64,000 nucleotides of DNA from a virus. Position 1 is the stretch's first letter, and each line of letters opens with the position of its first letter. Below are positions 37,978 to 55,992 of this stretch, piece after piece. The DNA is taken from positions 1-64,000 of IMG/VR virus record IMGVR_UViG_3300025030_000071; one strand, 5' to 3'. Under the pieces are notes generated by a model, which searched no databases, was not told the DNA's origin, and was given only the letters and a program-made list of their open reading frames with translations. The translations under genes and the position numbers were made by a program.

Positions 37978-37982
37978 TCAGT

Positions 37983-38669: not shown

Positions 38670-39182
38670 ATGGCACCTCTTAACCCCAACGCAAAAACCT
38701 CACCAGGATCCCCAGGATCCGTTTTAAGCCCCGAAGCAGACGTTGCCTATGGGTCACCCTCTCTCCCAGAAGACGAAGGCTTAGAATCGATCCTTGATCC
38801 CCTTGAGGAGATTTCTAGAACTTTCCCTGGTGCACCATCCCGTGATGTGCTCAATAGTTGGAAGATTGAATTCGGAGCTCTTTATGCATTCGTCCCTGAT
38901 GACGAGAAGGTCTTCTTGGTCCGTCCCCTCCGGCGCCTAGAATACCGAAATATCCTGAGGGACACTCGCGGTCTTGGCCAGTCAGGCGTTACTCCAGCAG
39001 AAGATATTGAAGACCTTTTCCAGGAGAAGGTCGTTCAGTGCTGCTTACTCCATCCAGTGGTAGATCACAAGATGCTAACCATGTCTGAAGCCGGCCTAAT
39101 CCCAACCCTCTTTGCCCTTATCATGGAGAACTCTAAGTTCGTAAGCCCTGAAAGAGCAATGAGCGCCTGTTACAAGCTATAA
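38670..39182 (+). CDS. Tail assembly chaperone (putative)
   Basis: Lies between tube and tape-measure locus. RPLRRLEY..CCLL..AGLIPTL. Confidence 0.6.
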   Translation: MAPLNPNAKTSPGSPGSVLSPEADVAYGSPSLPEDEGLESILDPLEEISRTFPGAPSRDVLNSWKIEFGALYAFVPDDEKVFLVRPLRRLEYRNILRDTRGLGQSGVTPAEDIEDLFQEKVVQCCLLHPVVDHKMLTMSEAGLIPTLFALIMENSKFVSPERAMSACYKL

Positions 39183-39199
39183 TAGAAGGAAGTATTTTT

Positions 39200-39565
39200 A
39201 TGTTTAAAGATAAGATCATTGTCCTAGTAGAACGCAGAGGATTCTCAATTGGCAAGATTGCACAGCCAAACCAACTTGGTCATGGCGACGTTATCGAACT
39301 TTATGACGCAAAGACTGAAGAGCCAATCCGTCACAAGACTGGAGCTTCTTACATTTGCACTTCAAATCCCAAGAAGGCCCCTAGTGGCGAATGGCATATT
39401 GATTATGTCCCCGTCCTAGAAGCAAATGACGTCTTCAATGAGCTTGGTGATGGTGGAACCTTCACTGTCGCCCAGGATACAAGAGGCAATTTCCAGCCAG
39501 GTGATAAGTTGAGCCAGGGCAATGTCTGGGACCAGGTCCCAATGTACAATCGCAAGAATGCCTAA
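39200..39565 (+). CDS. Hypothetical protein
   Basis: 121-aa ORF preceded by AAGGA. Confidence 0.6.
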   Translation: MFKDKIIVLVERRGFSIGKIAQPNQLGHGDVIELYDAKTEEPIRHKTGASYICTSNPKKAPSGEWHIDYVPVLEANDVFNELGDGGTFTVAQDTRGNFQPGDKLSQGNVWDQVPMYNRKNA

Positions 39566-39641
39566 GCCAGTAATCAATACCAACGGTCAGGTAACTAAGC
39601 CTGACCGAACAAAGCCAATCGTAAAGAAATAAGGAGTCAAT

Positions 39642-39743
39642 ATGCTTTCATTTTTATTTGGGGCTACCTGTGGTGTGGTCGGAACAATTTTCTTCCCCTT
39701 GTGGAGTAGACCTTTTAAAAAATGGCTTGGCTTGAGTGCGTGA
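39642..39743 (+). CDS. Small 33-aa membrane peptide (not in ORF track)
   Basis: TAAGGAG SD. MLSFLFGATCGVVGTIFFPLWSRPFKKWLGLSA*. TGATG overlap with the next gene. Confidence 0.6.
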   Translation: MLSFLFGATCGVVGTIFFPLWSRPFKKWLGLSA

Positions 39744-40009
39744 TGGATCCAGGTCACGGCAATCAGTGTTTTGCAATTCGCTGTACCCACATACCCACCG
39801 GCATCACGGCTAGTGGGTGCAGCTGCTCTTTAGGGACTCATAGTCATTTTTTAACAAAGAAGAAAGTTCTTTGCTATCTTAGATCAAAACTAGCTGTTCA
39901 TTTAAACCCTTCCATCCTCCCCCCAGAAACAACCAAGGATTATATCTTATACGATGGCGAAAACGTACCTAGACTACAAGATAGAATCGACCAGCATATA
40001 CCGGACTGA
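39743..40009 (+). CDS. Small protein resembling a class I release-factor segment, lacking GGQ
   Basis: AIRCTHIPTGITA...HSHFLTKKKVLCYLRSKL versus the RF consensus AVRITHxPTGI...RSQxxNKxxAxxxLxxxL. Start reassigned from 39722 because of TGATG coupling. Confidence 0.5.
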   Translation: MDPGHGNQCFAIRCTHIPTGITASGCSCSLGTHSHFLTKKKVLCYLRSKLAVHLNPSILPPETTKDYILYDGENVPRLQDRIDQHIPD

Positions 40010-40670
40010 CTTTGAAGAAGGTCATGTAGTCTGGACCCCCCTTCCTTGGTCTGAATATCGCAAATACAGAGAAGCAAGAGACTTCATGGGTGCCACCATC
40101 GACATCCAATTAGAAGAATCTATCTTTAACAAATGCGTTCTTTACTCTAGCTTTGACGAAGACCCACCAGAAGAACTCTCAGAAGAAGAGAAATGGCGTT
40201 GGACAGAAGACTCCCGCGCTCATCAAGATGCTGGCATCATATCTTCAGTAGTAAAGAATGTCCTTTCTGTATCTGGCACTTTAAATCCTAATTCCATAAT
40301 AGAAGTTATTTCTTATAATAGACAAGCTGTTGCTAATATCGAAGACCAGCTAATTGTTTTTATATGTAATGCATTCCCTGCTTATACTCCAGAAATGGTA
40401 GAAGCGATGGAATGGGCTACTATACTTAAAAGAGCAGCTCAGGCAGAAATGATATTACAAACTGAAATCCAGATAACTGATCCAGAAGAAGAAAGGGTCA
40501 AAGCAGCTAGGGCTCAGAAGATCAATATCGAAAAGGAAATAGCTGAAGTAGGTGCTGCCATGGGCGGCAGATCAAAACAAGACAAAGCAATGGAGCAGCA
40601 AGCTGCTGCCGATCACAGAAAGCAGATGGGCGAGCTGAGAGGACAATACCTTAGATCAAGAGGCATGTAA
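39954..40670 (+). CDS. Second tail assembly chaperone paralog (putative)
   Basis: TPLPWSEY..IFNKCVL..AGIISSV parallels 38670-39182. Abuts the tape-measure locus. Confidence 0.55.
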   Translation: MAKTYLDYKIESTSIYRTDFEEGHVVWTPLPWSEYRKYREARDFMGATIDIQLEESIFNKCVLYSSFDEDPPEELSEEEKWRWTEDSRAHQDAGIISSVVKNVLSVSGTLNPNSIIEVISYNRQAVANIEDQLIVFICNAFPAYTPEMVEAMEWATILKRAAQAEMILQTEIQITDPEEERVKAARAQKINIEKEIAEVGAAMGGRSKQDKAMEQQAAADHRKQMGELRGQYLRSRGM

Positions 40671-43600
40671 ATGGAAGAAAAGCCTCTTATCAGTGGTGTT
40701 GATAAAAAGCCTTTTATCGAAGTCACCAACCATGAATACGATGAATCTAGAAGATGGACCCAGGGGCTAACTTATCTTGCTCTATCAAGTGTGGCTTTAG
40801 TTGGTGTTAGGTTCGCCAGCAATATTACTTTAAATATAGATCCAAGTAGATTATCTTATCTTACTCAGGGTCTTGGCAACTGGTGGGAAGTAGCTGGTTA
40901 TCAATTAGATGCAACTGGCAAAACCCCAGTTAGATTAAGAGACTTCGCCTTAGAAGGCATCAAGCGTGTCGAAGAAACCATGGGGGGCATTCCGAGAACC
41001 TTCGGTCTCTTTGGATATGCTTCCGCCGGCACGCTGACAACTCCTGCCTCTCGTTTAACAATTCCCCCAGAAGCTCTTGTTGGAGCTAGATCCCATTACG
41101 AAACCCTCTTAGGTGAAGCTGGTCATACTCTAACCCCAGAGGACATGATCAGAGGCTTCAAGGTCCAGCCGCACGAAGGCAGACCAGCTTTGTTCCGCCT
41201 TGCCCCTGACAGTAGTATCTCTGGCGACCCACTTATCTCCGATGTAGATATCAGAGCACGTCGTTGGCAGGTCGAAAAGGACTCCCTTCGAGATGCTGAA
41301 GGTCGCCTCAAATACCAACACGTAATCAAAGAAACAGAAGTCTACAGTGATATCGCCGGCGCCAAACCAATCAGCAGAAACAATGAATTCAGATATGTAG
41401 TAACTAAAGCTACTGGTAAACCAAAAATCTCTGGAGTCTTGAGAGAAGCGTTAGAACCATTCCTTAATGTTGATAAGTTAGAATCAAAGATAAACATTCC
41501 TCCAGAAGCCCACAAAGTACTTCAAGGTGCTCAGGTATTTGGAAAGCGCATGACGGAACGTTATATGCGTGTTCTAGATAGCCCGTTGGAATTCATAGAA
41601 GAAGTTGTTTATGGTGGACCTTCTTCTGAAAGAGGACTTCTTAAAAAGAGTATTGAAAGCAAACCATATTCATTCTTTAAGAATGTCTTGGGTGCAGGAG
41701 GGGATTATTCAGGCACTGCTTTAGACTTGTGGGGTCGTCATATAAGCAGGCTCCTGCCAATTGTTGTTGGTGGTGCAGCTGCTTATGAAGTCGGCTCTGC
41801 TGTAACAAATCTTTTCTTTGGCAGAAATCTAGAACAGATGGGAGGAGAAGCTGTTGCAGCAGGTGAAAGAACTTATGCTGGCATCTCTGACCTTACAGGC
41901 CTAACTGCTCTAAACAAATATCAAAAAGACAAAGCAGAAGGCTCTCACCGGCTCTTAGGCGTTATGGCTTTTCCACTTTCGGGTGCTCTAACTGGATGGG
42001 TAGCCGCCGGCCTAACAAACAAATTAGCAACCCCTGAAGGCGTTTTCCCTTGGGCACATGCCAGAGAAGCGGTCCATGATGCCCCAGCTATTCTCCAGAA
42101 AGCGGAAAAGGTTCCACTCCTAGGTAAACTCTTTGGTGCTGGGATGACTAGAGGAGCTAAATTCGCTGGGATAGGTGGAGCTATTGGCGGGCTTCTTTCA
42201 TTACCATTCTTAATTGGTTCTTTAGGTTCCGGCTCCTCCTATAGGGAAGTGGCTGCTGAGCAGTCTGGAGAAGCTGAAGTATCTATAAAGAAAGGAAGAT
42301 TTTGGGAATCCGGAAAGTCGGACATCGAGGGCGAAGGAGAACAGATCTATACTGAAGGCTGGTATAGAAGATTAATGAACGAAGGCATAGACGACCTTAA
42401 TTATGGAGACTATGCTGACAGACCTTTCTCAAGAATGATTAAAGGAGTTACAGATCCCTACTACATTGAAAAAGAAATGTATCATGAAAGACCTTACCCA
42501 ATTGCAACAGCAGATGATTCTTTTGCGGGTCCGTTAGGTCCAATCTGGGCGGCCACAATAGGTAGAGTTCTAAAGCCAACCAAATATATGCATGCTGATG
42601 AAACATCCGCAGGCGGCCTCGAAGGCATCCAGCAAGGCGAAGCAATCCAGTATGGGAAGGACGTCTCTCAAGCCCCAGGAGGCGATTTAAGGAGTTCTGG
42701 ACCTGCGCCTGCACTCACCCCCTTAAGCCCATCCTTCACAGCCGGAGAAACGATCTACAGAGCTTCTGACGCTGCTGGTTTACCTGGTTATATATTAAGC
42801 GAAGCCCTCGGCTCAGACTCTTGGTGGGCTGACAAACCAGTACTTGCTTCTTCAAGTGATATTGGCAATATGCGTAATTCATTCTGGGATTGGGAAATTG
42901 GTGGTGGCGCCATGACCAGTGAGGGAATCCGCAGATTTCTTCCCAAAGACAGAACTGATATCCAAACCGTTAACCCAATTGCAAACGATATGCCTGCATG
43001 GCTCCCAGGGGCTGATTACTTCCAAGGCTCATTCTTGGAAGGGGACCCTTACTCTGGCAGAAGGATGAAGGAAAGACTGCCAGGCCCTGGTTTCGCTTCT
43101 CGCTTCCCAGAATTGGAAGATGTTCCATATGAAGAATATCCTGATATCTTCAAGTACAAGATATTAGCCGATGTTGCTAGGTCAAGTGATGAGTTTAAAG
43201 AAGTAGCTGGCAGAGTTAAAAACCAAGCAGACTCTGGAGAACTCCCCTATAGAGATCAGGCTATTTATGCTGGGACCCAAGCACAACTCTTAGAAAGAGA
43301 AAAGAAACTTTCATTTAGAGGAGAGCCAGAAGGCATCTTAGGCAACTACTGGGCGGGTCTAACCTCAGCCGGCCACCTAAACCCAGTTGAACATTTACTG
43401 CCCACCTCTCCTGTACATAAATCCTCAGGACCAGTTTCACCAATCCAGACTTATGAAGAACGAGAAGTATACAGCAAGACTTCTCCTCAATGGAATAAAC
43501 CAATAAGTGATTTCATTTTACCAGCAGCTAGAACAGCCGTTGCCGCAACTGGTGTCGATTTCATCCCAGCTCCAGTCCAAGAAGAGCGAGATCTAAAACA

Positions 43601-44474
43601 ATACTTTGATATCTTAGATTATACTAAAGCTAAAAAACTAGAAGGTGCTGCTAGAGAACAAGGTGAAGGCAGAGCTGCTTTTGCTTTTGCTAGAAAAGCT
43701 GAATTCACTATGTACGGTGCTGATCCATATGCCGACGTAGAGACAGTTGAGAAGGTAATCCCCCGAGAAGAGAAACCATACTTCAGGGAATTTGTTGCTG
43801 AAGATGACCCAGAAGTTAGAAAGAGAGTGCTTGAAGCCTCTCCAGCATATATGAAGAAATTCTATATGGCTCAATGGCAAAAGAAACTCTATGGGTTCTT
43901 AGCCTCCAAAGATGAAATCTCTGACCAAGAATCAGAAGCCATGCAGGCTATTGAAGCTTCTAGAGCCTTAGAAGGCCAGTCAGCTTCAATGGATATGTTC
44001 GGGGACTACTACTCAGGTGTTCAATCAGGTGATATAAGACCTAACACCTTTCCTGATTTTATTAGGGCAAAAAGATTAGAGGGTTATTTTGAAGAAGAAT
44101 CTCCTTTTAATGCACCAGCTTCGGATTGGATCGGCTACAATCCTGGTGCTAATATGGACAGTATCAAGCTAAAAGTAGTACAAGCAGAAGGACTCGACCA
44201 CCACGATTTCGATTTGTGGGAAGATGATTCAGCCCAGGCTGAACGAGATTTGTACGCTGCCGAAGGTGCTAGGGATCTAATGAATGGCCCTGGAGAAGAC
44301 CCTAACGAATTATCTAAATCTTTAATGGCTCTTAGATTAAGAGATTTGGATGTTCAGTTCACCAGTTCACCAGGAGACAAAACTAGAATAGTTTTAGATC
44401 TTGCGATGGATAAACGTGGTGAGATTAAGCGCCAACTTGAGCTTCAAGGGATCAGGTATGGAGTCGACACGTAA
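40671..44474 (+). CDS. Tape-measure-like/ejected protein with hydrophobic segments
   Basis: 1267 aa, directly after the chaperones. Several Gly/Ala-rich hydrophobic helices (LLPIVVGGAAA, AGIGGAIGGLLSLPFLIG). Confidence 0.55.
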   Translation: MEEKPLISGVDKKPFIEVTNHEYDESRRWTQGLTYLALSSVALVGVRFASNITLNIDPSRLSYLTQGLGNWWEVAGYQLDATGKTPVRLRDFALEGIKRVEETMGGIPRTFGLFGYASAGTLTTPASRLTIPPEALVGARSHYETLLGEAGHTLTPEDMIRGFKVQPHEGRPALFRLAPDSSISGDPLISDVDIRARRWQVEKDSLRDAEGRLKYQHVIKETEVYSDIAGAKPISRNNEFRYVVTKATGKPKISGVLREALEPFLNVDKLESKINIPPEAHKVLQGAQVFGKRMTERYMRVLDSPLEFIEEVVYGGPSSERGLLKKSIESKPYSFFKNVLGAGGDYSGTALDLWGRHISRLLPIVVGGAAAYEVGSAVTNLFFGRNLEQMGGEAVAAGERTYAGISDLTGLTALNKYQKDKAEGSHRLLGVMAFPLSGALTGWVAAGLTNKLATPEGVFPWAHAREAVHDAPAILQKAEKVPLLGKLFGAGMTRGAKFAGIGGAIGGLLSLPFLIGSLGSGSSYREVAAEQSGEAEVSIKKGRFWESGKSDIEGEGEQIYTEGWYRRLMNEGIDDLNYGDYADRPFSRMIKGVTDPYYIEKEMYHERPYPIATADDSFAGPLGPIWAATIGRVLKPTKYMHADETSAGGLEGIQQGEAIQYGKDVSQAPGGDLRSSGPAPALTPLSPSFTAGETIYRASDAAGLPGYILSEALGSDSWWADKPVLASSSDIGNMRNSFWDWEIGGGAMTSEGIRRFLPKDRTDIQTVNPIANDMPAWLPGADYFQGSFLEGDPYSGRRMKERLPGPGFASRFPELEDVPYEEYPDIFKYKILADVARSSDEFKEVAGRVKNQADSGELPYRDQAIYAGTQAQLLEREKKLSFRGEPEGILGNYWAGLTSAGHLNPVEHLLPTSPVHKSSGPVSPIQTYEEREVYSKTSPQWNKPISDFILPAARTAVAATGVDFIPAPVQEERDLKQYFDILDYTKAKKLEGAAREQGEGRAAFAFARKAEFTMYGADPYADVETVEKVIPREEKPYFREFVAEDDPEVRKRVLEASPAYMKKFYMAQWQKKLYGFLASKDEISDQESEAMQAIEASRALEGQSASMDMFGDYYSGVQSGDIRPNTFPDFIRAKRLEGYFEEESPFNAPASDWIGYNPGANMDSIKLKVVQAEGLDHHDFDLWEDDSAQAERDLYAAEGARDLMNGPGEDPNELSKSLMALRLRDLDVQFTSSPGDKTRIVLDLAMDKRGEIKRQLELQGIRYGVDT

Positions 44475-47400
44475 TGGGTAACAGTAGCGATTCATTCTGG
44501 GGGGAGTATGTAGCTCCAGCTGCCTTATTAACGGGAGCCGGGATCACTGGCTATCGCACATTCCAACAAGTAAGTGCAGGTCGTATATCTGCACCTTGGC
44601 GCCAGCAAAAAGAACAAAAAGACCTTCTCCAAAAACTAAAGAGTGCAAGAGCTAACCGCTATGAAATCTCTGCAACTGATTTAGCAGATGCTTTAGACTT
44701 TGATACTAGCCGATATAAAGGCTTTAACATCTTTACAAAGAACAGAAGCAAAATTGAACCAGCATTTAAAACAGCCAAAGAACTAACCGTCAAGAGCCTA
44801 TTACGTTCTTTTAACTTAAGCTCCTATGCTCAAACAGAACTAAAGGTTAACTTAGAGAATTTAGGCGATATATCAGCAGCTAACCTAAGGCATTTAATAG
44901 GGCTTTCGCCAAGCCACAAACAGCATGTTGAAAGAGTTGCTCGCTCAACGGGTTTATTACATTTAGTGGATATCCCTGGCGCTGATACGGCAACAGGTCA
45001 ATCGCTAGAAAAAAGAGCTAAGTTAGCTTACAAACAACTCATCACAGGGCATGAAGGACTTATAGACAGAACAGCTCCTGATCTTGGTGCTTTTATGGAA
45101 GAGCATAATATCTCAAGCGAGATACAAAAGCACAGAAGAATAAAACAGATACAGATGGATTCTCCCGAAGTTATCGCTGCATATTTTGAAGAATATGGCT
45201 TTGGCAAAAGAGAAGACTTAATAGCTAAAACCCATCGTCTTTTCCAAGCCGCTAAAGGCAAGGGGTTAAAGACTCAATTAATCCTCTTAAAAGAAGGCGC
45301 CAGAACAGAACTCTCCCAAGTAAGAATCTCAAGTGGTAAAGCATTCCAGGATATCCCAATCCAGCAAGCTAACGGAAGAATAAGACTTGGTGCATTAAGC
45401 CCAACTGAATATGTAGCTAGACAGGCTTTAAATCCAGGAGAAATGAGATCATATTTAGCTGGCAATAAAGGCACAAAGATCAGTATGGGTGCTGACGAAT
45501 TCCTGATGGATTACTTTACTGAGAATATGGATGATCTTGTTGAAGGCGATAAGTACAAGAGGTTTGTACGTTCTCATATCCAAGTAGGCAGAGAAGATAT
45601 GGGTAGATTACTCATCCCTACTGTTGCTAATGAAGGACTCAATGTAAAGCGTGTCTATGAAATGGCTGCTAAAGGATTTGGCGCTTCTGCCGACGAACTC
45701 TCTTCTTTGAGAAAGATGTTAGCTGAACGCAATAACTACGACCCAGTCGCTGGCCTCGGTCCAAACCAGGTTACAAATGATGTTTTTACCCTTCCTCATC
45801 CTAGCGGGAGAATAGCAGGTTCACTTCCGGTAGGATACTCTGCTGATTCCAGAACTACAGCCCAGAGATCACGTCCTTTTAAAATCTTAAATGAAGGTAG
45901 GGGCGCAAGTACTAAATTTGTGGGGATGTTAGAAGAGCAATCAGGGGACCAGATGCTGCGCATGCGCACAGCGGCAATTCCAGAAGAACATTTAAATGCT
46001 TTGCTTGCTGGCTCCAGTAGACCTGAGCTAAGAGCTAATGATGATATCCTATTTTTATTGGATCGTAATATTAGATATGGTGAAAGCCGCACCATAAGAT
46101 TAGGTAAAAGCAATCTTCAATCTGCCAAACTTGAAGAACTTCTACAAAACGAGACATTAAGGAGGCACGCTTTTGGAGAAGGCATCCAAGCTAGAATCTC
46201 TTTCCTTGAAGGTTTAGGTGGAGATACCATAACCGCAGAACAAAAAGCGGAAAGAGATCTGTTAGAACAAGCTAGAAGGATTTCTCCATCTGAAATTCTT
46301 GGGGAATCCTCAAAGGGGGGCTTTCAGAAAGGCCCAAAGTCTGGGAATTTTCTTCTAGACAAAATCTTAGAAGATCCAAAGACTGGTGAACTTGCTTTAG
46401 CAGGGATGGACGAAAGAACCTTGGGGGATACTGAAAAACTCTTCGGCAATAAAAAAGTTATTCAGATGGTGCCTGCAAGGACAGAATTCCGGGGTCTGGC
46501 TACTATATATGAAATGGCCAAAGGGTCGTCAGACATATTGCCAATTATGGCGCTACCTGAAGGGCCAGAACGTGCCGCTGCATTAAAAGATTTCTATGGT
46601 AAATATATGGATGCTTTCCGCAGAAGCTACGGTAAGGCAATAAAATCCAACAACGGATTTACTTATAGGATTGACCCCAACACAGGTTCTACACACCACA
46701 TCACTGTAGAAGAAATCATTCGAGGTACCCCAGAATTTAGGGATTTTGAATTAGGTCCACCAACGGAACCAGAAGTCTTGAGAAGAGCCCCAATTGAAGA
46801 GGCTTTAAGAAGAACCCGGGGGGTACAAGCAGTTGAGTCTCAGGGTATAAAGAAAATAGGTGAAAAATCCCTAGATACAATCACGACTGCTATGCTTGCA
46901 GAACTTTCTGAAAGACACCAGGGAATAGTTAGGGAAGCCGATACAGCAGCTGCTCATCTCGCAGGTTCTAGTGGCCTAGGTGGCGATTATTCTGATTGGC
47001 AAAGAGCCTATTCAGAAGGAGGCGCAGAAAAAGCAAGATTCGGCCATGCCTTAAGAAGTGGGATAAAAGGTGAAGAATTGGCAGCGGCCAGAGCTGGGAT
47101 GAAGCGAGCGAAATGGCTTTCTTCTGAAACTGCAAGACTAGACCCCTCAGTTCAAGGATCCCAATTTACAATTGGCCAATACCAAAAAGAAAGAAGAGAC
47201 ATAGAAGGTTTCTTCGCAGAAGTCGGCATCACCCCAGGAAAAGATAACATCTATAGATATCAAGATGCCCTTACCACATTAAGAGACCCTAGATCAACAC
47301 AAAATGTAACCAACTTGTTTGATAAGGCCTTGGGGCTTACAAGAGACATCGGGATGAGAAATAAGCTTTCTCTTTGGAGCACATCTCAACTCTTTGCAGA

Positions 47401-50197
47401 TATTGCCTCACAACTAGAAGGGTTCAAGGAGAAAGGAGATCTAAGTACTAAAGGCTTAGCAATTAGAGAATTGCTCTGGAAGGACCAGCAAGTAACTGCT
47501 GAGATGCTGGACCAGGCCATCCAACAATTCCAAACCCTTGGTAGCCGGAGTCGCAAAAATGCGGATATCGCTTTTGACCAAATGGTAAAAGGCGAAATGA
47601 AGGTTGGCCCTATGGCCAATCTGGACCCCAAACAAATTAGAGAACTTATCATCAGAGGAGTTGAACCGCAATTACAGCATCAAGTTTACAACCTGCCGGT
47701 AGCAATAGGCGGCAGGTCTACCCTTACAAGTGCTTCTGGCGGCATGGGTTCTATGAGCTTAGCGAATGTTGGCCACATGAGAGAACAAGGCGGGGTAATG
47801 GCCGAATTAGCTGATGAACTTTTAGGCAGACAAACTGGTACCAAATTAGAACAAGCACAAGAAATTGCGAAAAGATTTACTGCTTTCCAGGGAACAATCC
47901 CAGAAGGAATCCAAGCAATTCCATTAGCAGAATTTGCTAACAACTCTGGGGTAGGCAATGACTATATAGAAGGGCTTTTCAGCCCGACCCAGCCAGAACG
48001 AAATGCAGCCTTTGACAAGATTGGTGCTCAGTATGGATTAGACAAACCACAGTCTTTGTACTTTGATATTGGTGGCGGAAAATACATCTATCACCCGAGG
48101 GCCACTAGCCCACAAACTGGCTCTTTTATTACCTCGGAAGGCCAAGCAATCCGGAGTGATCTAGATAAATCATTTGCTGATATTATTAAGGGCCACCAGG
48201 TAAATAGCCCTAGTTTAATAGAAAGTGGAAAAAAGGCTTATGGGGAAGCGATAGTAGAAAGTACTATCGGTCGTGACAAACCACTCATAAAAGCTTACTC
48301 TGGAAAAGTTCTAGGATCTATGCGTGGTCAGGCTCGCCCACAATTATCAGAAGAATTCTTTACTTACTTAAAAGATAAAGGTCTTACTCATAGAGTTGGG
48401 ATTAGAGAAGCAACCTTCCAGTCCATGTCAGCCCAGGCTGGGATGGTCGACCAATACAAAGAAGGTTTGGGGTCATTGCGCAGAGGCGAATATGGCATGG
48501 TCCTAAGTCGAGACCCACAAACAGAACTTTATAGAACAATGGCGGCTCAGGGCTATAGTCTTGACGAAGCAGTGGGAGAGTTCACTGATAAAAGACTAAG
48601 CGGCATGAGCTTAGAAGAAAAACAATTAGAACTGGTTGGGGTAACAGGCGAAGAAAAATATAATAAATTTAGAGAAAATTATTTAGAAAAGAGTAGGAAA
48701 GCACAGGAAGCAGTGGCTCTGGCACGTAAAAAGCTTGCAGATTCGCATCCGAATGCAGACCAAAGACCTTTTGAGAGAAGGGTCGAGAAAGCTGAAAGAA
48801 GATTGGAAAAGTTAGGCAGCTGGGAAGGAGCTATTAGCGAGAAAATAAAGAAGAGCAGATTGGCCGCCTTTGGGAAAGAAGGTGTTTATCTTCCAGAACA
48901 TGTGTTAAAAGGTCTGGGCGCCGACTTCGACGATGACCAAGTAAACCTTTTCTTAGCCAAAGACAAAAATGCACGTCAGCGTTTGTCAGAAAGAGCAGGC
49001 CACCAAAACGATCTTGTTGCAAGTTGGATGGACCAAACAAATAAAGGCATGGCAGATACAGACATTGTGGCGCAGGTAAGAGCAGGCAGAACTGACGAGA
49101 TGATGAGACCTGAACAACTTCTAGCAGAAGAGGATTTCCTTTACAAGGCCAAACACAAAGCCTTATACAGCCAGCTCTATGACCGTCCTGGCGGTATTAT
49201 ATCAGCAGAAGCACTTATGCCTGGAACCCCAGAATGGAAACAAAGAGTAATAGGCGAAATGACAATGGCCCAACTAGAAAAAGGTGAGATCGGTTCCATG
49301 TCCAATGCTGTTGACTTTGTTAGAACATCTTTAAGAGCTAAGACTTCTTCAGATAAAGCTTCAGGAAAATTGTTTACTGAAATGCTATTAGGCATCATGC
49401 CAGAGTTACCCCTAAAGGGCAAACAGTACGGCGCCCAGGGCATCGAAGAAGCAAAAATCCATATCCTTAACTTAAGAAATATCTTGTCTGGCAGAGCGCC
49501 AATTTCTACTAGCCCTCAGGCACTTTCAGAAAGCTTTCAGGCTTCATTCAAGAGCATCATGGGGAGCCATCCAGTTGTTGAAGATATGATGAAATTTGTT
49601 CCCGATGTGATAGCTGAGGTTAAAGCTGGCAGCCGTGGAGAAAACGTTTTTACAAGAATGCTTAAATCTAGACAAGCGGCAGAAGTAAACTTAGACCATT
49701 TAATGAAACTGGCCATGGACCCAACCGTGCCATCTCCACAAGGAGAACTGATAAGGGAAGCAGCTGGCCAAGCTCCAAGCAAAACAGGTGAAGCTGGAAG
49801 ACATATTAAGAATGCAAGAGAATCTTTTAGTGATGTTTATAACATAATGAAGAAAAATAAAGGTCCTTTGCTTATTGGTGCCGCTGCCGCAGTCGGTGTC
49901 TCAATGTTATTGGGAAGTCCAGGGCATATCTCAGAAGAGGAAGCTAACGCTGCCGGCGCCAGGCACCAGCCATCTGGAGACCCATCAATCCCACCAATTG
50001 AATCAGGGAACTTTGCAAGAGTATCTCCTAGCTCTGGTGGTTCAATCAGAATTCGTGGAACAGCAGATAGTTCAGTAAGTCAGCAAAGTGTATTATCAAT
50101 GCTTCAGTCAAAGTATCCTGGAGCTGATGTTTCATATAATATTAATGATTATAGTTCATCAATCAACGAAGAGTACTTACGTAGAAGGGTAGGATAA
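44474..50197 (+). CDS. Putative single-chain two-barrel (DPBB) virion RNA polymerase at the tape-measure locus
   Basis: Beta-like ANDDILF..SPSEILG..RTLGDTEKLFGNKKVI, then beta'-like GKVLGSMRG..RVGI..LSRDP..LGADFDDDQV..GEIGSMSN. Hydrophobic helices at both termini. Confidence 0.7.
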   Translation: MGNSSDSFWGEYVAPAALLTGAGITGYRTFQQVSAGRISAPWRQQKEQKDLLQKLKSARANRYEISATDLADALDFDTSRYKGFNIFTKNRSKIEPAFKTAKELTVKSLLRSFNLSSYAQTELKVNLENLGDISAANLRHLIGLSPSHKQHVERVARSTGLLHLVDIPGADTATGQSLEKRAKLAYKQLITGHEGLIDRTAPDLGAFMEEHNISSEIQKHRRIKQIQMDSPEVIAAYFEEYGFGKREDLIAKTHRLFQAAKGKGLKTQLILLKEGARTELSQVRISSGKAFQDIPIQQANGRIRLGALSPTEYVARQALNPGEMRSYLAGNKGTKISMGADEFLMDYFTENMDDLVEGDKYKRFVRSHIQVGREDMGRLLIPTVANEGLNVKRVYEMAAKGFGASADELSSLRKMLAERNNYDPVAGLGPNQVTNDVFTLPHPSGRIAGSLPVGYSADSRTTAQRSRPFKILNEGRGASTKFVGMLEEQSGDQMLRMRTAAIPEEHLNALLAGSSRPELRANDDILFLLDRNIRYGESRTIRLGKSNLQSAKLEELLQNETLRRHAFGEGIQARISFLEGLGGDTITAEQKAERDLLEQARRISPSEILGESSKGGFQKGPKSGNFLLDKILEDPKTGELALAGMDERTLGDTEKLFGNKKVIQMVPARTEFRGLATIYEMAKGSSDILPIMALPEGPERAAALKDFYGKYMDAFRRSYGKAIKSNNGFTYRIDPNTGSTHHITVEEIIRGTPEFRDFELGPPTEPEVLRRAPIEEALRRTRGVQAVESQGIKKIGEKSLDTITTAMLAELSERHQGIVREADTAAAHLAGSSGLGGDYSDWQRAYSEGGAEKARFGHALRSGIKGEELAAARAGMKRAKWLSSETARLDPSVQGSQFTIGQYQKERRDIEGFFAEVGITPGKDNIYRYQDALTTLRDPRSTQNVTNLFDKALGLTRDIGMRNKLSLWSTSQLFADIASQLEGFKEKGDLSTKGLAIRELLWKDQQVTAEMLDQAIQQFQTLGSRSRKNADIAFDQMVKGEMKVGPMANLDPKQIRELIIRGVEPQLQHQVYNLPVAIGGRSTLTSASGGMGSMSLANVGHMREQGGVMAELADELLGRQTGTKLEQAQEIAKRFTAFQGTIPEGIQAIPLAEFANNSGVGNDYIEGLFSPTQPERNAAFDKIGAQYGLDKPQSLYFDIGGGKYIYHPRATSPQTGSFITSEGQAIRSDLDKSFADIIKGHQVNSPSLIESGKKAYGEAIVESTIGRDKPLIKAYSGKVLGSMRGQARPQLSEEFFTYLKDKGLTHRVGIREATFQSMSAQAGMVDQYKEGLGSLRRGEYGMVLSRDPQTELYRTMAAQGYSLDEAVGEFTDKRLSGMSLEEKQLELVGVTGEEKYNKFRENYLEKSRKAQEAVALARKKLADSHPNADQRPFERRVEKAERRLEKLGSWEGAISEKIKKSRLAAFGKEGVYLPEHVLKGLGADFDDDQVNLFLAKDKNARQRLSERAGHQNDLVASWMDQTNKGMADTDIVAQVRAGRTDEMMRPEQLLAEEDFLYKAKHKALYSQLYDRPGGIISAEALMPGTPEWKQRVIGEMTMAQLEKGEIGSMSNAVDFVRTSLRAKTSSDKASGKLFTEMLLGIMPELPLKGKQYGAQGIEEAKIHILNLRNILSGRAPISTSPQALSESFQASFKSIMGSHPVVEDMMKFVPDVIAEVKAGSRGENVFTRMLKSRQAAEVNLDHLMKLAMDPTVPSPQGELIREAAGQAPSKTGEAGRHIKNARESFSDVYNIMKKNKGPLLIGAAAAVGVSMLLGSPGHISEEEANAAGARHQPSGDPSIPPIESGNFARVSPSSGGSIRIRGTADSSVSQQSVLSMLQSKYPGADVSYNINDYSSSINEEYLRRRVG

Positions 50198-53100
50198 TGG
50201 CAGTAGATCAAGATGGCCTATTCAATGACATTGCAAGAGCAGCCCATTTCTATGATGCAGAGAACATAGAATCAGAAACCGTTAGCGAATTAAAAATTGG
50301 CGATCACCCAATCAACTGGGGCGATACTAATTACAAAGAACTTGTTAGCGGTGAATTCAGAATCAATGGGATAGCATTCCCAGTAGACCCCCAGAACATT
50401 TCCATTTGGGAAGAAAACCAGAACTATAAGTATGAAACCCTAAGAACAAGAGAATCTACCAAAGTACGTTCCGGCCATTCATCAATAAACATGAGTGTGC
50501 AGGCAATCTTTGCAGGGAAAACTGTTCTGTTTGGCGACAAGCACCTTCTTCAGACAACAAAGAATGCTCACTTCGCTCTCAACCATACCCTTATGCCAAT
50601 CCTCTATAGTCTTAAAAAGATGCCTCTTTGTTTCTTGGACAACGAATTGCTAAGAACAACCCTGCCTGTTTCCTCAGATGAGAATATTGCTGCTTTCGTA
50701 AAGTCAGTAAACGTCAGTACGGTACAAGGAATGCCAGAAGTCCTTTCAGCCACCTTCCAATTTGTCTGGTATAACCACAGGCCCTTTGCCCCAAGGATCA
50801 AGTTCAGAGAAAACTGGTTAGATAAAACTGGGACAGTTGAGAGGATTGCTGATACTTACAGGGGCATGGCGGTTGATACAGCTCAGACAGTGGTTGGGGC
50901 GTCAAATGCCGTACGCGAGGGAACGGACGGTTATGCCTCGCACGTAGGCCGTGCCGCTTTCATCAAGCAGTATGGGCATCCCAGTATCGCCTTCAATGCA
51001 ACAACAGGATTAACCGCCACAGAAAACATATACAATGCCGCGCCTCTACGTGAATACCTTTGGCCATATGCTTACGAATCAACAAACCCAGCAATCGTAG
51101 CTTTAGGTAATGACCCAGCGATTGCAGCAATGCCTCCTTTTGTCCTTAGCGGATTTGATAGAACAATCAATTTAGATTTTACTATAGTAAAAGCACCAGA
51201 TACTGTTTTCTACAAAGGTGCTGAAAGAAGTATTTTAGAGTTAGGTGAACAAATTGTTCGAGATGACGTTATAAAAGAATACACCTTTGATGATAATGAA
51301 ACCAACTCTGGGTCTGTCCCAGTTGGATATGTCTGGCCATTAAGTCCAAAGGGACGCCTTTCCAGCCACACAGGAGCCCGTACTCTCGACGGTGCAACAG
51401 GAGACCATCAAGGCATTGACATCCATGCGACAAGGGAATCTAAAGTTTTAGCTGTTGCCGATGGCAAAGTTTACTATACCTCGCCTCCGGGTCAGCTCAA
51501 TGATAAGGCTGGTTACTTCATTGAGATCAGCCACAGAGGAGGAGTGTTTTCAAGATACCTTCATCTAACAAGCGTGAATGTGAAGAAAAACGACATAGTA
51601 AGAGCTGGAGACGTTATAGGTCTTGCAGGCAACACGGGTGTCACCAACGTTGGGAGCAGCGGGGATGAAAGGATACATCTCCACTTTGAACTAAGAACAG
51701 GCGGCCCCAAAGGGCCTTATGTACCAGATCCAGAGAAGCTGTTAAAGGGTTCAGGCGAACCCCACCATACAGTTTCAACTACAAACCGTTTGATAACCCG
51801 CTTTGACCCAGCAGATATCCTATCAGTTATAAATAAAGACCTTGAAGACATGCCAGAAGATACTGTTATGTCAAAAATTAATAAATTCATTAGTTCTAAA
51901 ATGGTACAGGGAAGTACCTTGGCGGCTCAGGCAATGCAGGTAGGGGCAGGACCTGCTTTAACTAATTTGGTTTCTGGCAGGCAGGCGCCTCCCCCGGATA
52001 GCGATGCCCAAACCCTCACCACCGCCATAAACAAACTTATATCTGAGGGCTGGCACTTTGAGCGAGACCTGAATACTGGCAAGCCAGCACAGATCCGTTA
52101 CCTAACTCTCTCTGCCAGATCAGACTCTGCTGATATTATTCCTCAAGAAATAAACTTTGGTTTTGGCACTAACCTAGCTATGACCCCTTTACAAGGCCAT
52201 AGATTCCCAACGGTCCAATACGTAGGTGGCCAACAATCAGCTATTACGATAGCGATGAGAGCAGAAGGCAAATACGGTAGAGAGTACATTAGAAAACTAA
52301 AAGACCTAATAGCCTCTACAGAAGAATCAGCTATTCATTTCAGGGAGTTCACAAAATACAGAGGCATTGGAATAACCAACCAATTAATTAACTCAGTTAA
52401 CATCAATGAAGTTATTCTTGAGGATATGACGGTTGATGCCATCCCAGGCAACCCCGAAAGTCTTCAGATAGTATTAAGATTTGTAGACAACTCTAGAGAC
52501 AAGGCCGCACCACCATTCTTGGTGCCTAGAGACGAAGTAAGTCAAGACGATGCAGTCTTAAATGCCTTTGCTTATATCCTTGATCAAGGATGGATCCAAA
52601 TAGCTATAGAAAAAGAAACGGCAAGAATAAGAACTGGTAAAACGCGAGCAGAATATAATCCCTATGCTGTCGGGGCCGGAGTAACGAGTGTGCCGATCCT
52701 TACAGATGAGATAGATGTTTATAAATTAACTCCAGAAACAAGACCGTTACTCCATCCTAATATTGTCCAAAAACAATTGACAAACATTAAAGAGTATATA
52801 CGAACAAAAGAATATGTTGCAAGAGATGGCGGACTTGCCAATAATGCCCCATACAATCTTTACAGCATTGATGAGTACAAGGAACTGTCAGGTGTTTCCA
52901 TGCCATTGGCCTTTAAGGATTATAAATTCACAGAAATTATTTGGAACGCTGCTGACAACACGATCAGAGATCCTGTCTCCAAGGCGGTGCTTACAAACAA
53001 ACTTTTTGAAATTATTGCCATCTTAGGAACTCCACAAAGCGACGGCATCCCACTTGACCCTTACTTTGCGAAATTATTAACCGAGATAGGAAATACAGTT

Positions 53101-55992
53101 AGCTTTGTAAAGGGCAATGGATGTTACCCAGATCTACTATTGCCTCCAAACCCCATTACTGGACTTACAGTAGATACTCTACCAGATTTCTTCTTATACA
53201 ATGAGTCAGATGTTTCTACTGCTAATAGCAACATCTTGCGAATGGTCCATGGCAGTATCGCGGAGATGCCTAAAACCATAGGGTTAAGAGCTGCAATGTC
53301 AGCTATGGAAAATACCTGGGATAACCTAAAAGATTTGTATGGCGAGGGAGATGGCGAAGGGCTTAACCCAGCCAACGAAGGACGAACCGATGAGGATACA
53401 GGAGTTGGGGTCTATTTAAATTATGGGACAAAAACTGGGGCTTCTGGGAACGGCGTATTTAAACACGGTAACGAATCAAGAAACGTCCCCCCAGACTTGA
53501 ATGCTGGCATCCTTTCAATCCAGATTGAAAATGGAGATAAACCAGCTAGGCTACAGACAGATATCAGCTCTCGCTACGACCGAAACGAAACAAATAGAGA
53601 CAAGGCCCTCGATTTTAACTATGCATCTTCACCATACAAAGATATAATCAAAAGCAACCCATCTATAAATGCCCACCAAATGCAGCATGTCTTTCATAAA
53701 GGCGAATATGAACGTTTGTTCAATAATTTTGCTGATAATTATTCAGGTGAACATTTTGCCATTAGAAGAAGTTTTCCAACATTCAAGATTTATTTTGTAG
53801 ATGAGAACGCTGCAATTGGCCAAAACACAGATGACCAAACAATAAACAATCTTATTTATACAATGGCTTTAGATGATTTCTATGGTGTAAATGCTGTTAA
53901 AGAAATACGCATTGTAGAAAACAAAGACATGGCAGCAAGTACTTGCATCATAAGTATATTAGATTTGGATGGGGTTCTTTACAACAGAAAGTTCATGGAT
54001 CCAAGCTCTGAGTTTGGTTCTAGAGATAGCAAAAAGTCAGAAAACAACAACCCATTTGGTAATACAATGATTACTGAAGGGATGAAAGTCGTAGTTAAAT
54101 TAGGACATATGAATGACCCTTACCAATTAAAGACTTGCTTTGTTGGCCAGATAGTTCAGTTTGAAGGCACGGATCTGGTAGAAATAATTTGTCAAAGTTA
54201 TGGGACTGAACTAGTCCAACAAACCTTTGGCAGTAAACCCGCAGAGAATGCCAACTTCTATAATACATATACTGTGGATTTGATCCATGACGTAATGGAT
54301 AGAGAAGAACTCAGGCACTTTGGCCGGTGGGAATTAAAAAACATTGATGCTCTTGGGTTCTATTTAGGTCACGAGAAATTAAGGCCAGATGGACAGACTA
54401 AAACAGTGTGGACTTGGAAGCCCTCAGTGGTAGATGATAATATTTTTGCCCCTCCTGCTGGTTCAGAGGCTGGATGGTGGGATAAGTTTGCAGGTAATCT
54501 AGAGTACGTCCTTTGGAATACAACCATTTGGGATGTACTCAAGGAAATGGAATTGCGTAATCCAGGCCATATCGCCTACCCAGTTCCTTATGGAAATACC
54601 CCCAGCGCAAGAATGACAATGTTCTTTGGCGTACCTGGTATGGAGTATCTTTTTGCTCCAGCAGAAACCCCAAATGAACAGATTAGTGATTTCTATGGGC
54701 AAAATTACAATGATGCTGTAAAGCAGTCAATCATATCTTTAGGGAATCATTGGATCCCACAAGGGATCCAGGCCAGCACGCTAGAGCGCCTTGCATATAA
54801 AAAAGGCATTGAAGATTTAGCAACATTCTTTGAAAGTCCTGGATATGCACAAAGATGGGATTTATCTGCGATGCAAGGGATGACCCTCTGGAGCGCTAGC
54901 GACATAGCCAACCTAACGACTATTGCCCCACATGCCCGAGCTATCGTAAATAAAATTCATCAATTGAAGCCAGGTGCTTCAAACGAAGAGTTCTGGAAAG
55001 CTACTATGATCTTCAACGAAGGTCGAATGAAATCATTTAGAAATTATGAACTTATAACTAGCGTCCATGATATTATAGCAAATGAAATTAGAACCGATCA
55101 TAGAGACACGTACAACAGCATAGAGCTCAGATATACCGATGGATTAACTGCGGTTGATAACGATGTTGATTTTATTGAATTTCAAAACAATGGGAATGTT
55201 GGGACTTTTACTGCCAATCTCGACGACAACATCAAAGAGCACCACATAAGAAGAAATATAGAAAATTGGCCCAATTGTAGCACGCCAGATTTGGCCAGAA
55301 GATATGCTTCCCAATTATTAGCTAACTCGCTAAAGAGAACCTATAAGGGTTATCTTATGATAATGGGGCGTCCTAACCTGAAACCCTATGATTACATTTA
55401 TCTCAATGATGCTTATAGCGACATGTCAGGCCCATTGGAAATTGAAGAAGTAGTTCATACTTTCTCTCAAGAGACAGGCTTTATAACTGAGATAGTTCCC
55501 AACATGATTGTTACAGTTAAAGACGAAGTAAGCCTCATGACGGCCGACATGATGACGAGTTTCTTTGCAGAGACTTGCAAGCATATGGAAAACGAAATTC
55601 GTGCATCTTCGAAAGTTGGATGGGAAGAAGAAACGGTAGCAGCAAAGGGCCTGGGTGCAGGAGTTGTGATCGGCGCAGGCATACTAGCTGTTCCAACTTT
55701 CGCTTCTATATCAGGAATATTATCTGGCTATCTTGCTTACAAATATGTAAAATATTGTCAGACAAGAGAACCTATTGTAATTATTCCCCTCATCAAAGAA
55801 GGTAAGCCCTACGTAACGGGCATCGAGAGCATGGAGTCTGATGGGCTTGTCCTTTCAGATATTTTCGACCCAACAAAAACAGATAAATTTATTGATAGAA
55901 TGGCAAAGAAGAAATGGCGTTACTGGGTAGATGGGATTAAGGATGCTAATGAACTTATCCAAATCGGGTGGGCTAACTGGTTAACACGATGA
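50197..55992 (+). CDS. Baseplate hub/tail-associated protein with M23 peptidase domain
   Basis: M23 motifs WPL..HQGIDI..AVADG..YLHL..HLHFE (~51328-51744). C-terminal hub-like GRPNLKPYD..IEEVVHTFS..GFIT. Confidence 0.8.
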   Translation: MAVDQDGLFNDIARAAHFYDAENIESETVSELKIGDHPINWGDTNYKELVSGEFRINGIAFPVDPQNISIWEENQNYKYETLRTRESTKVRSGHSSINMSVQAIFAGKTVLFGDKHLLQTTKNAHFALNHTLMPILYSLKKMPLCFLDNELLRTTLPVSSDENIAAFVKSVNVSTVQGMPEVLSATFQFVWYNHRPFAPRIKFRENWLDKTGTVERIADTYRGMAVDTAQTVVGASNAVREGTDGYASHVGRAAFIKQYGHPSIAFNATTGLTATENIYNAAPLREYLWPYAYESTNPAIVALGNDPAIAAMPPFVLSGFDRTINLDFTIVKAPDTVFYKGAERSILELGEQIVRDDVIKEYTFDDNETNSGSVPVGYVWPLSPKGRLSSHTGARTLDGATGDHQGIDIHATRESKVLAVADGKVYYTSPPGQLNDKAGYFIEISHRGGVFSRYLHLTSVNVKKNDIVRAGDVIGLAGNTGVTNVGSSGDERIHLHFELRTGGPKGPYVPDPEKLLKGSGEPHHTVSTTNRLITRFDPADILSVINKDLEDMPEDTVMSKINKFISSKMVQGSTLAAQAMQVGAGPALTNLVSGRQAPPPDSDAQTLTTAINKLISEGWHFERDLNTGKPAQIRYLTLSARSDSADIIPQEINFGFGTNLAMTPLQGHRFPTVQYVGGQQSAITIAMRAEGKYGREYIRKLKDLIASTEESAIHFREFTKYRGIGITNQLINSVNINEVILEDMTVDAIPGNPESLQIVLRFVDNSRDKAAPPFLVPRDEVSQDDAVLNAFAYILDQGWIQIAIEKETARIRTGKTRAEYNPYAVGAGVTSVPILTDEIDVYKLTPETRPLLHPNIVQKQLTNIKEYIRTKEYVARDGGLANNAPYNLYSIDEYKELSGVSMPLAFKDYKFTEIIWNAADNTIRDPVSKAVLTNKLFEIIAILGTPQSDGIPLDPYFAKLLTEIGNTVSFVKGNGCYPDLLLPPNPITGLTVDTLPDFFLYNESDVSTANSNILRMVHGSIAEMPKTIGLRAAMSAMENTWDNLKDLYGEGDGEGLNPANEGRTDEDTGVGVYLNYGTKTGASGNGVFKHGNESRNVPPDLNAGILSIQIENGDKPARLQTDISSRYDRNETNRDKALDFNYASSPYKDIIKSNPSINAHQMQHVFHKGEYERLFNNFADNYSGEHFAIRRSFPTFKIYFVDENAAIGQNTDDQTINNLIYTMALDDFYGVNAVKEIRIVENKDMAASTCIISILDLDGVLYNRKFMDPSSEFGSRDSKKSENNNPFGNTMITEGMKVVVKLGHMNDPYQLKTCFVGQIVQFEGTDLVEIICQSYGTELVQQTFGSKPAENANFYNTYTVDLIHDVMDREELRHFGRWELKNIDALGFYLGHEKLRPDGQTKTVWTWKPSVVDDNIFAPPAGSEAGWWDKFAGNLEYVLWNTTIWDVLKEMELRNPGHIAYPVPYGNTPSARMTMFFGVPGMEYLFAPAETPNEQISDFYGQNYNDAVKQSIISLGNHWIPQGIQASTLERLAYKKGIEDLATFFESPGYAQRWDLSAMQGMTLWSASDIANLTTIAPHARAIVNKIHQLKPGASNEEFWKATMIFNEGRMKSFRNYELITSVHDIIANEIRTDHRDTYNSIELRYTDGLTAVDNDVDFIEFQNNGNVGTFTANLDDNIKEHHIRRNIENWPNCSTPDLARRYASQLLANSLKRTYKGYLMIMGRPNLKPYDYIYLNDAYSDMSGPLEIEEVVHTFSQETGFITEIVPNMIVTVKDEVSLMTADMMTSFFAETCKHMENEIRASSKVGWEEETVAAKGLGAGVVIGAGILAVPTFASISGILSGYLAYKYVKYCQTREPIVIIPLIKEGKPYVTGIESMESDGLVLSDIFDPTKTDKFIDRMAKKKWRYWVDGIKDANELIQIGWANWLTR

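Follow-up and report, generated by a model that had tools for sequence, protein, structure and literature searches.

The tape-measure slot of a contractile-tailed giant phage encodes a candidate single-chain two-barrel RNA polymerase

What kind of protein is encoded by the 1907-amino acid open frame that fills the tape-measure slot of a viral tail locus (44474..50197, + strand; hereafter P0001)? The frame is uninterrupted and specifies no cysteine. It lies in a window of 64,000 nucleotides (positions 1 to 64,000 of IMG/VR record IMGVR_UViG_3300025030_000071), a stretch found in four groundwater-metagenome sequencing runs of one study, none of those listed being RNA. A first-pass annotation, made from the sequence alone, had read P0001 as a single-chain two-barrel polymerase. 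Our analysis largely supported this reading, and P0001 is most likely a previously unrecognised single-chain RNA polymerase with the two-barrel architecture of cellular enzymes.

All seven motifs cited for that reading were recovered from the P0001 translation in their proposed places. These are ANDDILF (residues 521-527), ISPSEILG (603-610), RTLGDTEKLFGNKKVI (648-663; nt 46415-46462), SGKVLGSMRG (1276-1285), LSRDP (1344-1348; nt 48503-48517), GADFDDDQ (1482-1489; nt 48917-48940), and GEIGSMSN (1604-1611). The DFDDD sequence is the sole DxDxD within the protein.

A search of 1.8 billion proteins yielded 27 representatives, mostly 1750-1930 amino acids long; the family counts about 25 metagenomic homologues with 19-45% pairwise identity. 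The family alignment comprised 18 sequences with a median pairwise identity of 26%, and only 38 of its 1907 columns were invariant. Eight residues are universal to two-barrel RNA polymerases: the three aspartates of DxDxD, the arginine and proline of RxP, and an aspartate and two lysines in the beta-like part (PMC2919709). Seven of the eight (D524, K655, R1346, P1348, D1484, D1486, and D1488) were invariant in all 18 sequences, and the remaining one, K660, was lysine in 15 and arginine in 3. The probability of finding seven of eight residues named in advance among the invariant columns is 5.5e-12 (hypergeometric). Thus, DxDxD, RxP, and the lysines are conserved in homologues, and the P0001 family carries the universal residues of the two-barrel (DPBB) superfamily, with lysine or arginine at position 660. 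The first-pass annotation had also pointed to an aspartate in place of glycine in the catalytic loop. This residue is present in P0001; however, position 1487 is occupied by aspartate in eight sequences, by alanine, asparagine, or glycine in three each, and by glutamine in one. Because the position varies, the substitution is not a family feature, and Asp1487 was ruled out as a special property.

Pfam and PHROGs both miss the family: neither matched P0001, and Pfam matched none of the 18 homologues. PDB sequence searches with protein and profile queries returned nothing relevant, tblastn found no counterpart in 50,697 phage records, and a word-indexed homologue search returned P0001 alone. The Pfam model PF00623 scored 14.5 bits (E 0.002) over 48890-48985 only, across the DFDDD sequence, which is below its cut-off of 25.3 bits, and the ESM Atlas listed Rpb1_2 clusters, a weak lead. 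With every sequence-based match to known polymerases below threshold, it might be argued that a protein of this length would match the motifs by chance and that the predicted fold is an artefact. We regard this as extremely improbable in view of the conservation probability given above, of two independent structure searches that returned RNA polymerases, and of a confident structural model.

The AlphaFold2 model of residues 500-1699 (pLDDT 82.4, pTM 0.78) contains a beta'-type double-psi beta-barrel carrying the DxDxD motif, and the best 50 matches listed by Foldseek against the PDB were all RNA polymerase beta'. When the beta-like domain was folded alone, second-largest RNA polymerase subunits ranked first, giving weak structural support. 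Thus, of the two barrels anticipated in the structure, the beta'-type one was found, while the beta-like one, folded alone, was weakly supported. Neither phi14:2 gp66 nor YonO was among the matches listed (best 50), which is not evidence of a difference from either.

The chain can be divided as follows, all coordinates being on the + strand. A conserved, weakly hydrophobic, Gly/Ala-rich segment (44495..44554, residues 8-27; family consensus FFGEYVAPG..L..GAG.TGYR.) precedes a family-conserved N-terminal region (44555..45970, residues 28-499), which has no Pfam or PHROG match and of which residues 430-499 were folded at low confidence only. The beta-like barrel region (45971..46651, residues 500-726) contains D523-D524 (46040..46045; family motif HED), with D524 as the counterpart of Rpb2 D837, and the two basic residues K655 and K660 (46436..46453; family motif GDK.FG.K). 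The mostly helical middle region (46652..47887, residues 727-1138; low confidence at 727-769) carries a conserved GSGR.GS.N....H..AQGGVM motif near residues 1089-1110. It is followed by the beta'-like half, which includes the second DPBB (47888..49570, residues 1139-1699). In this half, R1346-D-P1348 (48509..48517; family motif R.P.TELHR) provides the invariant counterparts of Rpb1 R446 and P448, and D1484-F-D1486-D-D1488 (48923..48937; family motif GAD[FY]D.D) forms a predicted metal-binding triad of three invariant aspartates. The charged insert between RxP and DxDxD that the earlier reading described is real; it spans 135 residues (48518..48922) and is helical by prediction, with helices at model residues 864-965. 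Downstream, a long helix (49229..49342, residues 1586-1623, model residues 1087-1124) bearing an invariant LEKG.IG.M.N.....R...R motif may correspond to the bridge helix. The protein ends with a family-conserved transmembrane-type helix (49862..49918, residues 1797-1815) and a conserved tail (49955..50194, residues 1828-1907). Hydrophobic helices had been proposed at both ends; the C-terminal one is clear, while residues 8-27 fall below the hydropathy threshold.

We compared P0001 with known two-barrel polymerases. In contrast to the largest subunits of multisubunit enzymes (beta', Rpb1, vaccinia Rpo147, and the beta'-like proteins of AR9 and phiKZ), it holds beta-like and beta'-like parts in one chain. 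It is far larger than the single-chain enzymes, namely the non-virion polymerases P23-45 gp64 and P74-26 gp62, QDE-1, plant RDR2, and YonO, and differs from them in having membrane and tail modules and in lacking a match to PF05183, the YonO and eukaryotic RdRP family. PF05183 was absent from P0001 and its 18 homologues, as well as from G000, G001, and G002, while the positive control, phage 0305phi8-36, scored 69 bits. A complete 204-kb relative (IMGVR_UViG_3300024336_000005) has no YonO-type polymerase by the same model, whereas 0305phi8-36 has one. Another parallel is Thermus phage P23-45 gp96, a virion RNA polymerase fused to a tape measure (PMC10770324; PDB 8h2n). P23-45 is a siphovirus, whereas the P0001 phage has a contractile tail; the polymerase core takes up most of the 1907 residues of P0001 but only the N-terminal fifth of the 5002-residue gp96; the metallopeptidase fused in gp96 is encoded here by the adjoining hub gene; and the 135-residue helical insert distinguishes P0001 from gp96. 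When the P0001 family was compared with gp96 residues 1-1200, hhalign gave a probability of 1.4% over just 24 columns around DFDGD, and hmmsearch was not significant.

RDR2 and QDE-1 matched the P0001 model as highly as DNA-dependent enzymes, so the fold is silent on whether the template is DNA or RNA. Thus, P0001 might be an active two-barrel polymerase that does something other than transcribe early genes: it might copy RNA as an RNA-dependent RNA polymerase, serve replication in the manner of a primase, or act as a motor pulling in the 200-kb genome, or it might be made late and left unpackaged. We consider these possibilities unlikely. The phage has a double-stranded DNA genome, and the gene sits inside the tail module, apparently coupled in translation to orthologues of virion proteins. 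Moreover, position 523, directly before the invariant D524, is glutamate or aspartate in 16 of 18 sequences. In this respect P0001 resembles multisubunit enzymes, as an acidic residue at this place is typical of DNA-dependent multisubunit polymerases and absent from the QDE-1/YonO type (PMC2919709). Both earlier examples, gp96 and crAss gp66, act as transcriptases (PMC10770324; bioRxiv 10.1101/2020.03.07.982082).

The tail locus was then considered gene by gene. A tail sheath gene (33637..36474, + strand) and a baseplate wedge gene (57220-58434) define a contractile tail, in agreement with the earlier reading. Tail-chaperone-like genes occupy 38670..40670 (+ strand), of which 38670-39182 resembles gp033 of Acinetobacter phage vB_AbaM_ME3 (ME3) and 0305phi8-36 gp143, and 39954-40670 weakly resembles 0305phi8-36 gp144. 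The upstream neighbour of P0001 (40671..44474, + strand) encodes 1267 amino acids without cysteine but with four hydrophobic segments and is an orthologue of ME3 gp035 and 0305phi8-36 gp145 (E 1e-49, 7e-20). The downstream neighbour (50197..55992, + strand; 1931 aa) combines an M23 peptidase domain with a hydrophobic helix at its C terminus and is an orthologue of the baseplate hub-lysin 0305phi8-36 gp147/ME3 gp037 (PMC2147016). It had previously been taken for a tape-measure-like gene; instead, P0001 itself holds that slot, occupying the place of 0305phi8-36 gp146, with the tail chaperones on one side and the baseplate hub on the other. gp146 is the assigned tape measure of 0305phi8-36 (PMC2147016), a distantly related jumbo myovirus, and mass spectrometry has placed both it and gp145 in the virion. 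TAATG stop/start overlaps join the P0001 gene to both neighbours and suggest that their translation is coupled. The order of sheath, tubes, chaperones, a gene of ~1270-1300 amino acids, the RNA polymerase-like gene, and a gene of ~2000-2200 amino acids was conserved in all three related IMG/VR loci examined. We found no paralogy among the three giant genes of the locus, and a promoter and terminator scan of 38000-57000 gave counts not above those of shuffled sequence.

In ME3, the same slot, between orthologous neighbours, is filled by gp036 (YP_009595868.1), which is annotated as hypothetical and, like P0001, lacks cysteine. It is shorter (1603 versus 1907 aa), and it reads DHDQD where P0001 reads DFDDD. 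The second half of gp036 matched the P0001 model in Foldseek (E 2.5e-7, probability 1.0, TM 0.44). Furthermore, the gp036 family shows the corresponding residues invariant and in the same order: D522, K632, K639, R1174, P1176, and D1217/1219/1221. The spacing between RxP and DxDxD is 43 residues in this family, the 135-residue insert being specific to the P0001 family. The C-terminal module, made up of the transmembrane helix and the tail, was similar in the two families when these preselected C-terminal segments were aligned (hhalign probability 72%, E 3.3e-5), while the whole-length profile comparison was not significant (1.7%). The DFDGD loop and the C-terminal tail were all that hhalign and hmmsearch picked up when the P0001 family was compared with gp96, gp036, and gp146. 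Because ME3 gp036 is related in structure and shares the catalytic residues, a cultured phage is on hand for testing.

The corresponding protein of 0305phi8-36, gp146, shares its position and its lack of cysteine with P0001, but it has 2537 amino acids and no DxDxD, and this phage has a YonO-like polymerase, orf99, elsewhere in its genome. The only part common to P0001 and gp146 is the C-terminal module, the tail of P0001 being weakly similar to the last ~70 residues of gp146 (hhalign probability 10%; hmmsearch domain i-E 6e-4 among 7 sequences). The same tail is also similar to part of CDS0031, the slot protein of Moorella phage MTATph1, which likewise has neither DxDxD nor cysteine. Since DxDxD is missing from the proteins that fill the slot in 0305phi8-36 and MTATph1, the slot need not hold a polymerase.

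P0001 could then be a tail-lumen or ejection protein, acting as a tape measure or pore former, in which the two-barrel core is a dead structural relic, with the host polymerase doing the transcription. Its tape-measure position, the module shared with two proteins that have no DxDxD, its transmembrane helix, and the absence of cysteine, as in other proteins of the slot, are all consistent with such a role. However, dead enzymes lose catalytic residues. In the P0001 family, the catalytic set is retained at 19-45% identity, with K or R at 660, amid just 38 invariant columns, and ME3 gp036 and its relatives, a separate family, show no variation at the corresponding residues. This makes a dead relic decidedly unlikely.

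As a whole, we favour as likely the explanation that P0001 is a two-barrel polymerase of the tail slot that is delivered with the virion and starts phage transcription. The beta-like barrel (~residues 500-726) would supply D524, K655, and K660, and the beta'-like barrel (~residues 1270-1500), with the long bridge-like helix after it, would supply R1346, P1348, and the D1484/D1486/D1488 metal triad. P0001 would be incorporated in the tail together with both giant neighbours, and it is probably delivered with the virion. At infection, it might be expelled via the tail tube; its C-terminal helix would anchor it in place at the membrane, from where it would transcribe the first phage genes off the entering DNA without the host polymerase, in parallel to P23-45 gp96. 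What speaks against this explanation is that a folded core of ~130 kDa fits poorly with being stored in the lumen of the tail tube or with acting as a ruler.

More tentatively, and with less confidence than in the role of P0001 itself, the tape-measure slot in the deep jumbo myovirus lineage of 0305phi8-36, ME3, and their groundwater relatives may be a cassette in which conserved N- and C-terminal tail-anchoring modules flank a core that can be swapped. This core would be a complete two-barrel RNA polymerase in the Gram-negative and groundwater branches, threaded through the contractile tube and tethered by its C-terminal helix at the entry pore, so that transcription would begin in step with uptake of the 200-kb genome. 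If so, tail-delivered two-barrel polymerases would have arisen at least twice, in the P23-45 and P0001 lineages, and ME3 would begin its infection without depending on the host RNA polymerase.

So far, crAss-like podoviruses and one group of Thermus siphoviruses are known to deliver two-barrel polymerases with their virions. If our reading is true, P0001 would represent a third such family, unrelated in sequence and found in contractile-tailed giant phages, and predictions of early transcription and of sensitivity to rifampicin and host defence would change for its lineage. In a 2021 survey of jumbo-phage polymerases, two-barrel enzymes were confined to group 1 phages and two phages of group 3 that carry YonO (PMC7824862). 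P0001 also raises the question of how a folded enzyme of ~130 kDa travels in or through a tail, a question that could be tested in the cultured phage ME3 with gp036.

Last, SGKVLGSMRG (48299..48328, + strand), which the first-pass annotation had likened to the beta' motif GKRVDxSGR, appears in the family as SGKV.GS.R, with G1277 and G1281 invariant.

The reading frame at 44474-50197 (+) runs without interruption for 1907 codons, and the first-pass annotation had read it as a single-chain two-barrel RNA polymerase. All motif positions quoted in support of that reading were confirmed in the translation, in which DFDDD at residues 1484-1488 is the sole DxDxD. As had been predicted, automated annotation misses the protein: we found no match in Pfam or PHROGs, none among PDB sequences searched with the candidate and then with its family profile, and none by tblastn against 50,697 phage records. 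Two leads were weak: a sub-threshold Pfam PF00623 match coinciding precisely with the DFDDD loop (14.5 bits, E 0.002), and Rpb1_2 clusters listed at 0.83 in the ESM Atlas.

We modeled residues 500-1699 (1200 residues) with AlphaFold2 using a 23-sequence alignment and obtained a mean pLDDT of 82.4 and a pTM of 0.78. The best 50 Foldseek matches of this model in the PDB were all bacterial beta' chains (best E 2.5e-4, probabilities 0.77-1.0). When 48,161 representative chains were searched by a method independent of Foldseek, single-chain two-barrel enzymes ranked first or close to it, and their alignments ran from model residue 1 to ~1180, covering both barrel regions. In the same search, isolated domains of the double-psi beta-barrel (DPBB) type fitted model residues 782-997 (protein residues 1281-1496) with an rmsd of 1.9-2.5 Å over 84-85 of 86 residues, the helical insert being looped out. 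The beta-like part alone (residues 430-740) had a pLDDT of 75.8, with a core of ~90. About 44 of its best 50 Foldseek matches were second-largest RNA polymerase subunits (Rpb2, bacterial and plastid beta, and vaccinia Rpo132), although neither these nor any other match reached E <= 1e-3, and a wide structure search with this part yielded helical matches only. Thus, of the two DPBBs expected in the predicted structure, the beta' barrel was recovered, whereas the beta-like part alone matched weakly; the putative second barrel draws its support chiefly from the alignments of the whole model and from conserved residues rather than from a fold match of its own.

An exhaustive HMMER search over 1.8 billion representatives with residues 500-1699 as the query identified 27 proteins, mostly of 1750-1930 aa. 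Eighteen full-length family members, with pairwise identities of 19-45% (median 26%), were aligned, and only 38 columns were invariant. Eight residues are common to all two-barrel polymerases, namely the D481, D483, D485-type triad, R446, and P448 of Rpb1 and D837, K979, and K987 of Rpb2 (Ruprich-Robert and Thuriaux, PMC2919709). Seven of the eight were invariant across the 18 members (D1484, D1486, D1488, R1346, P1348, D524, and K655), while K660 was lysine in 15 and arginine in 3. The probability of seven of eight pre-named residues landing in the 38 invariant columns is 5.5e-12. Conservation of DxDxD, RxP, and the lysines, whose absence from homologs the first-pass annotation had named as grounds for giving up its reading, was therefore found. 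The family consensus (LHEDE, GDK.FG.K, SGKV.GS.R, R.P.TELHR, GAD[FY]D.D, and LEKG.IG.MTNAVDF.R..LR) resembles a polymerase more closely than the window's sequence does. Sixteen of the 18 members carry an acidic residue directly before D524, a feature typical of DNA-dependent enzymes and missing in those of QDE-1/YonO type (PMC2919709). Position 1487 varies in the family (D, A, N, G, or Q), so the aspartate in place of glycine in the catalytic loop, initially singled out as unusual, carries no special meaning.

The window represents a large myovirus's structural module; its DNA was found in groundwater metagenomes, all from one study, and the parent IMG/VR record comprises 86.7 kb with an estimated completeness of 43%. 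The module opens with the large terminase gene (10158-12539), which carries an intein (Intein_splicing, E 1.8e-10), and continues with the portal gene (15279-18377), which contains an intein and a LAGLIDADG-type insert matching intein-bearing phage genes. Next come the major capsid protein, the sheath (33637-36474), three tube-like paralogs (36485-38642), and genes resembling chaperones; TAATG overlaps link the three giant genes after them (1267, 1907, and 1931 aa), and the baseplate genes follow. The tube-like paralogs match PHROG 9206, whose label "major head protein" is misleading, because the same proteins in 0305phi8-36 are noted as the tail tube and a tube paralog. We retrieved five related IMG/VR loci, one of them on a 204-kb contig rated 100% complete. 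All three loci examined for gene order keep the succession of sheath, tubes, a gene of ~1270-1300 aa, the polymerase-like gene, a gene of ~2000-2200 aa, and baseplate.

Among phages in culture, capsid and sheath proteins place Acinetobacter phage ME3, Moorella phage MTATph1, and Bacillus phage 0305phi8-36 closest (26-30% capsid identity), and all three share the three-giant layout. The first giant (40671-44474) is the ortholog of ME3 gp035 (E 1e-49) and 0305phi8-36 gp145, and the third (50197-55992), with an M23 peptidase, is the ortholog of 0305phi8-36 gp147 and ME3 gp037. Because gp147 has been described as a hub of T4 gp27 type, enlarged and bearing lytic domains (Hardies et al., PMC2147016), this neighbor, previously taken for a tape-measure-like gene, is the hub and not a tape measure.

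The candidate itself occupies exactly the position of gp146 in 0305phi8-36, a protein detected in virions whose tape-measure role was assigned on the basis of tail length; only its last ~60 residues are conserved among relatives (Hardies et al., PMC2147016). The candidate family resembles gp146 only over the ~70 residues at the C terminus, for which hhalign gave a probability of 10% and hmmsearch, run on seven sequences, a domain i-E of 6e-4; MTATph1 CDS0031 carries a fragment of the same tail. The MTATph1 gene in this slot (11513-18869 of its locus) is apparently split by a transposase, with CDS0027 (1309 aa) before it and CDS0031 (313 aa), bearing the conserved tail motif, after it. DxDxD is absent from the slot proteins of MTATph1 and 0305phi8-36 (gp146, 13624-21237 of its locus).

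The second-best match of the model among predicted viral structures was A0A172Q021_2 (E 2.5e-7, probability 1.0, TM 0.44, 778 columns). Exact look-up identified A0A172Q021 as ME3 gp036, annotated as hypothetical and encoded in the same slot (9173-13984 of the ME3 locus). Across its family, 10 sequences sharing 32-89% identity with gp036, the same eight catalytic-type residues are invariant (D522, K632, K639, R1174, P1176, and D1217/D1219/D1221) and follow one another as they do in the candidate. Whole-length profile comparison of the two families was not significant (probability 1.7%), while the C-terminal helix-plus-tail module alone, a region picked by eye, gave a probability of 72% (E 3.3e-5). 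ME3 may thus carry an unrecognized polymerase, and a cultured representative of the candidate family probably exists. Further viral structures from BFVD that matched the model with probabilities of 0.91-1.0 include A0A7R7G2L5_2, A0A8S5SD80_1 ("minor tail protein" of uncultured Siphoviridae sp. ctnpt50), and A0A075BUT7_2 (Microcystis phage MaMV-DC). These proteins may be more two-barrel polymerases associated with tails.

Both the candidate and its upstream neighbor (40671-44474) lack cysteine entirely, as do their counterparts in ME3 (5382-13984), 0305phi8-36 (7787-21237), and MTATph1 (5649-15442, each in its own locus), whereas the adjoining hub proteins contain 8-12. At the window background of 0.63% cysteine, a protein of 1907 aa would lack the residue with a probability of 6e-6. 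This lack would fit passage through the envelope, either crossing an oxidizing periplasm or traveling unfolded.

Together, the fold, catalytic residues, order of parts, synteny, and C-terminal module point to an active RNA polymerase, probably DNA-dependent. Its tail-slot modules would bring it into the virion; at infection it would be ejected, stay tethered through its helix at residues 1797-1815, and make the first phage transcripts, as in the model proposed for P23-45 gp96 (PMC10770324). We consider it very likely that the protein adopts the two-barrel fold and keeps its catalytic set intact; virion delivery with a role in early transcription is somewhat favored. The original polymerase reading is supported, with its neighbor and aspartate corrected. 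The family is new and distinct in sequence but belongs to a known kind, the virion or tail-associated single-chain two-barrel RNA polymerases; what is new is its setting in contractile-tailed jumbo phages. Our literature search found no description of this family, and a 2021 jumbo-phage survey reported two-barrel enzymes only in group 1 phages, 0305phi8-36, and c-st (PMC7824862).

The YonO/RdRP profile PF05183 scored 69 bits in 0305phi8-36, on the gene described as orf99 (PMC2147016), and found no match in ME3, the window's record, or the 204-kb and 143-kb relatives. 0305phi8-36 combines a YonO-type gene with a slot protein devoid of DxDxD, while ME3 and the groundwater relatives show the reverse; across these few genomes, a phage seems to have either the slot polymerase or the YonO-type gene but not both. 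Elsewhere in the window, a 1405-aa, cysteine-free ORF (2520-6737) has kinase-like signatures (ABC1, Pkinase, and RIO), mostly under Pfam cut-offs, and a staphylococcal-nuclease domain (E 2.6e-16); its product may be another ejected effector.
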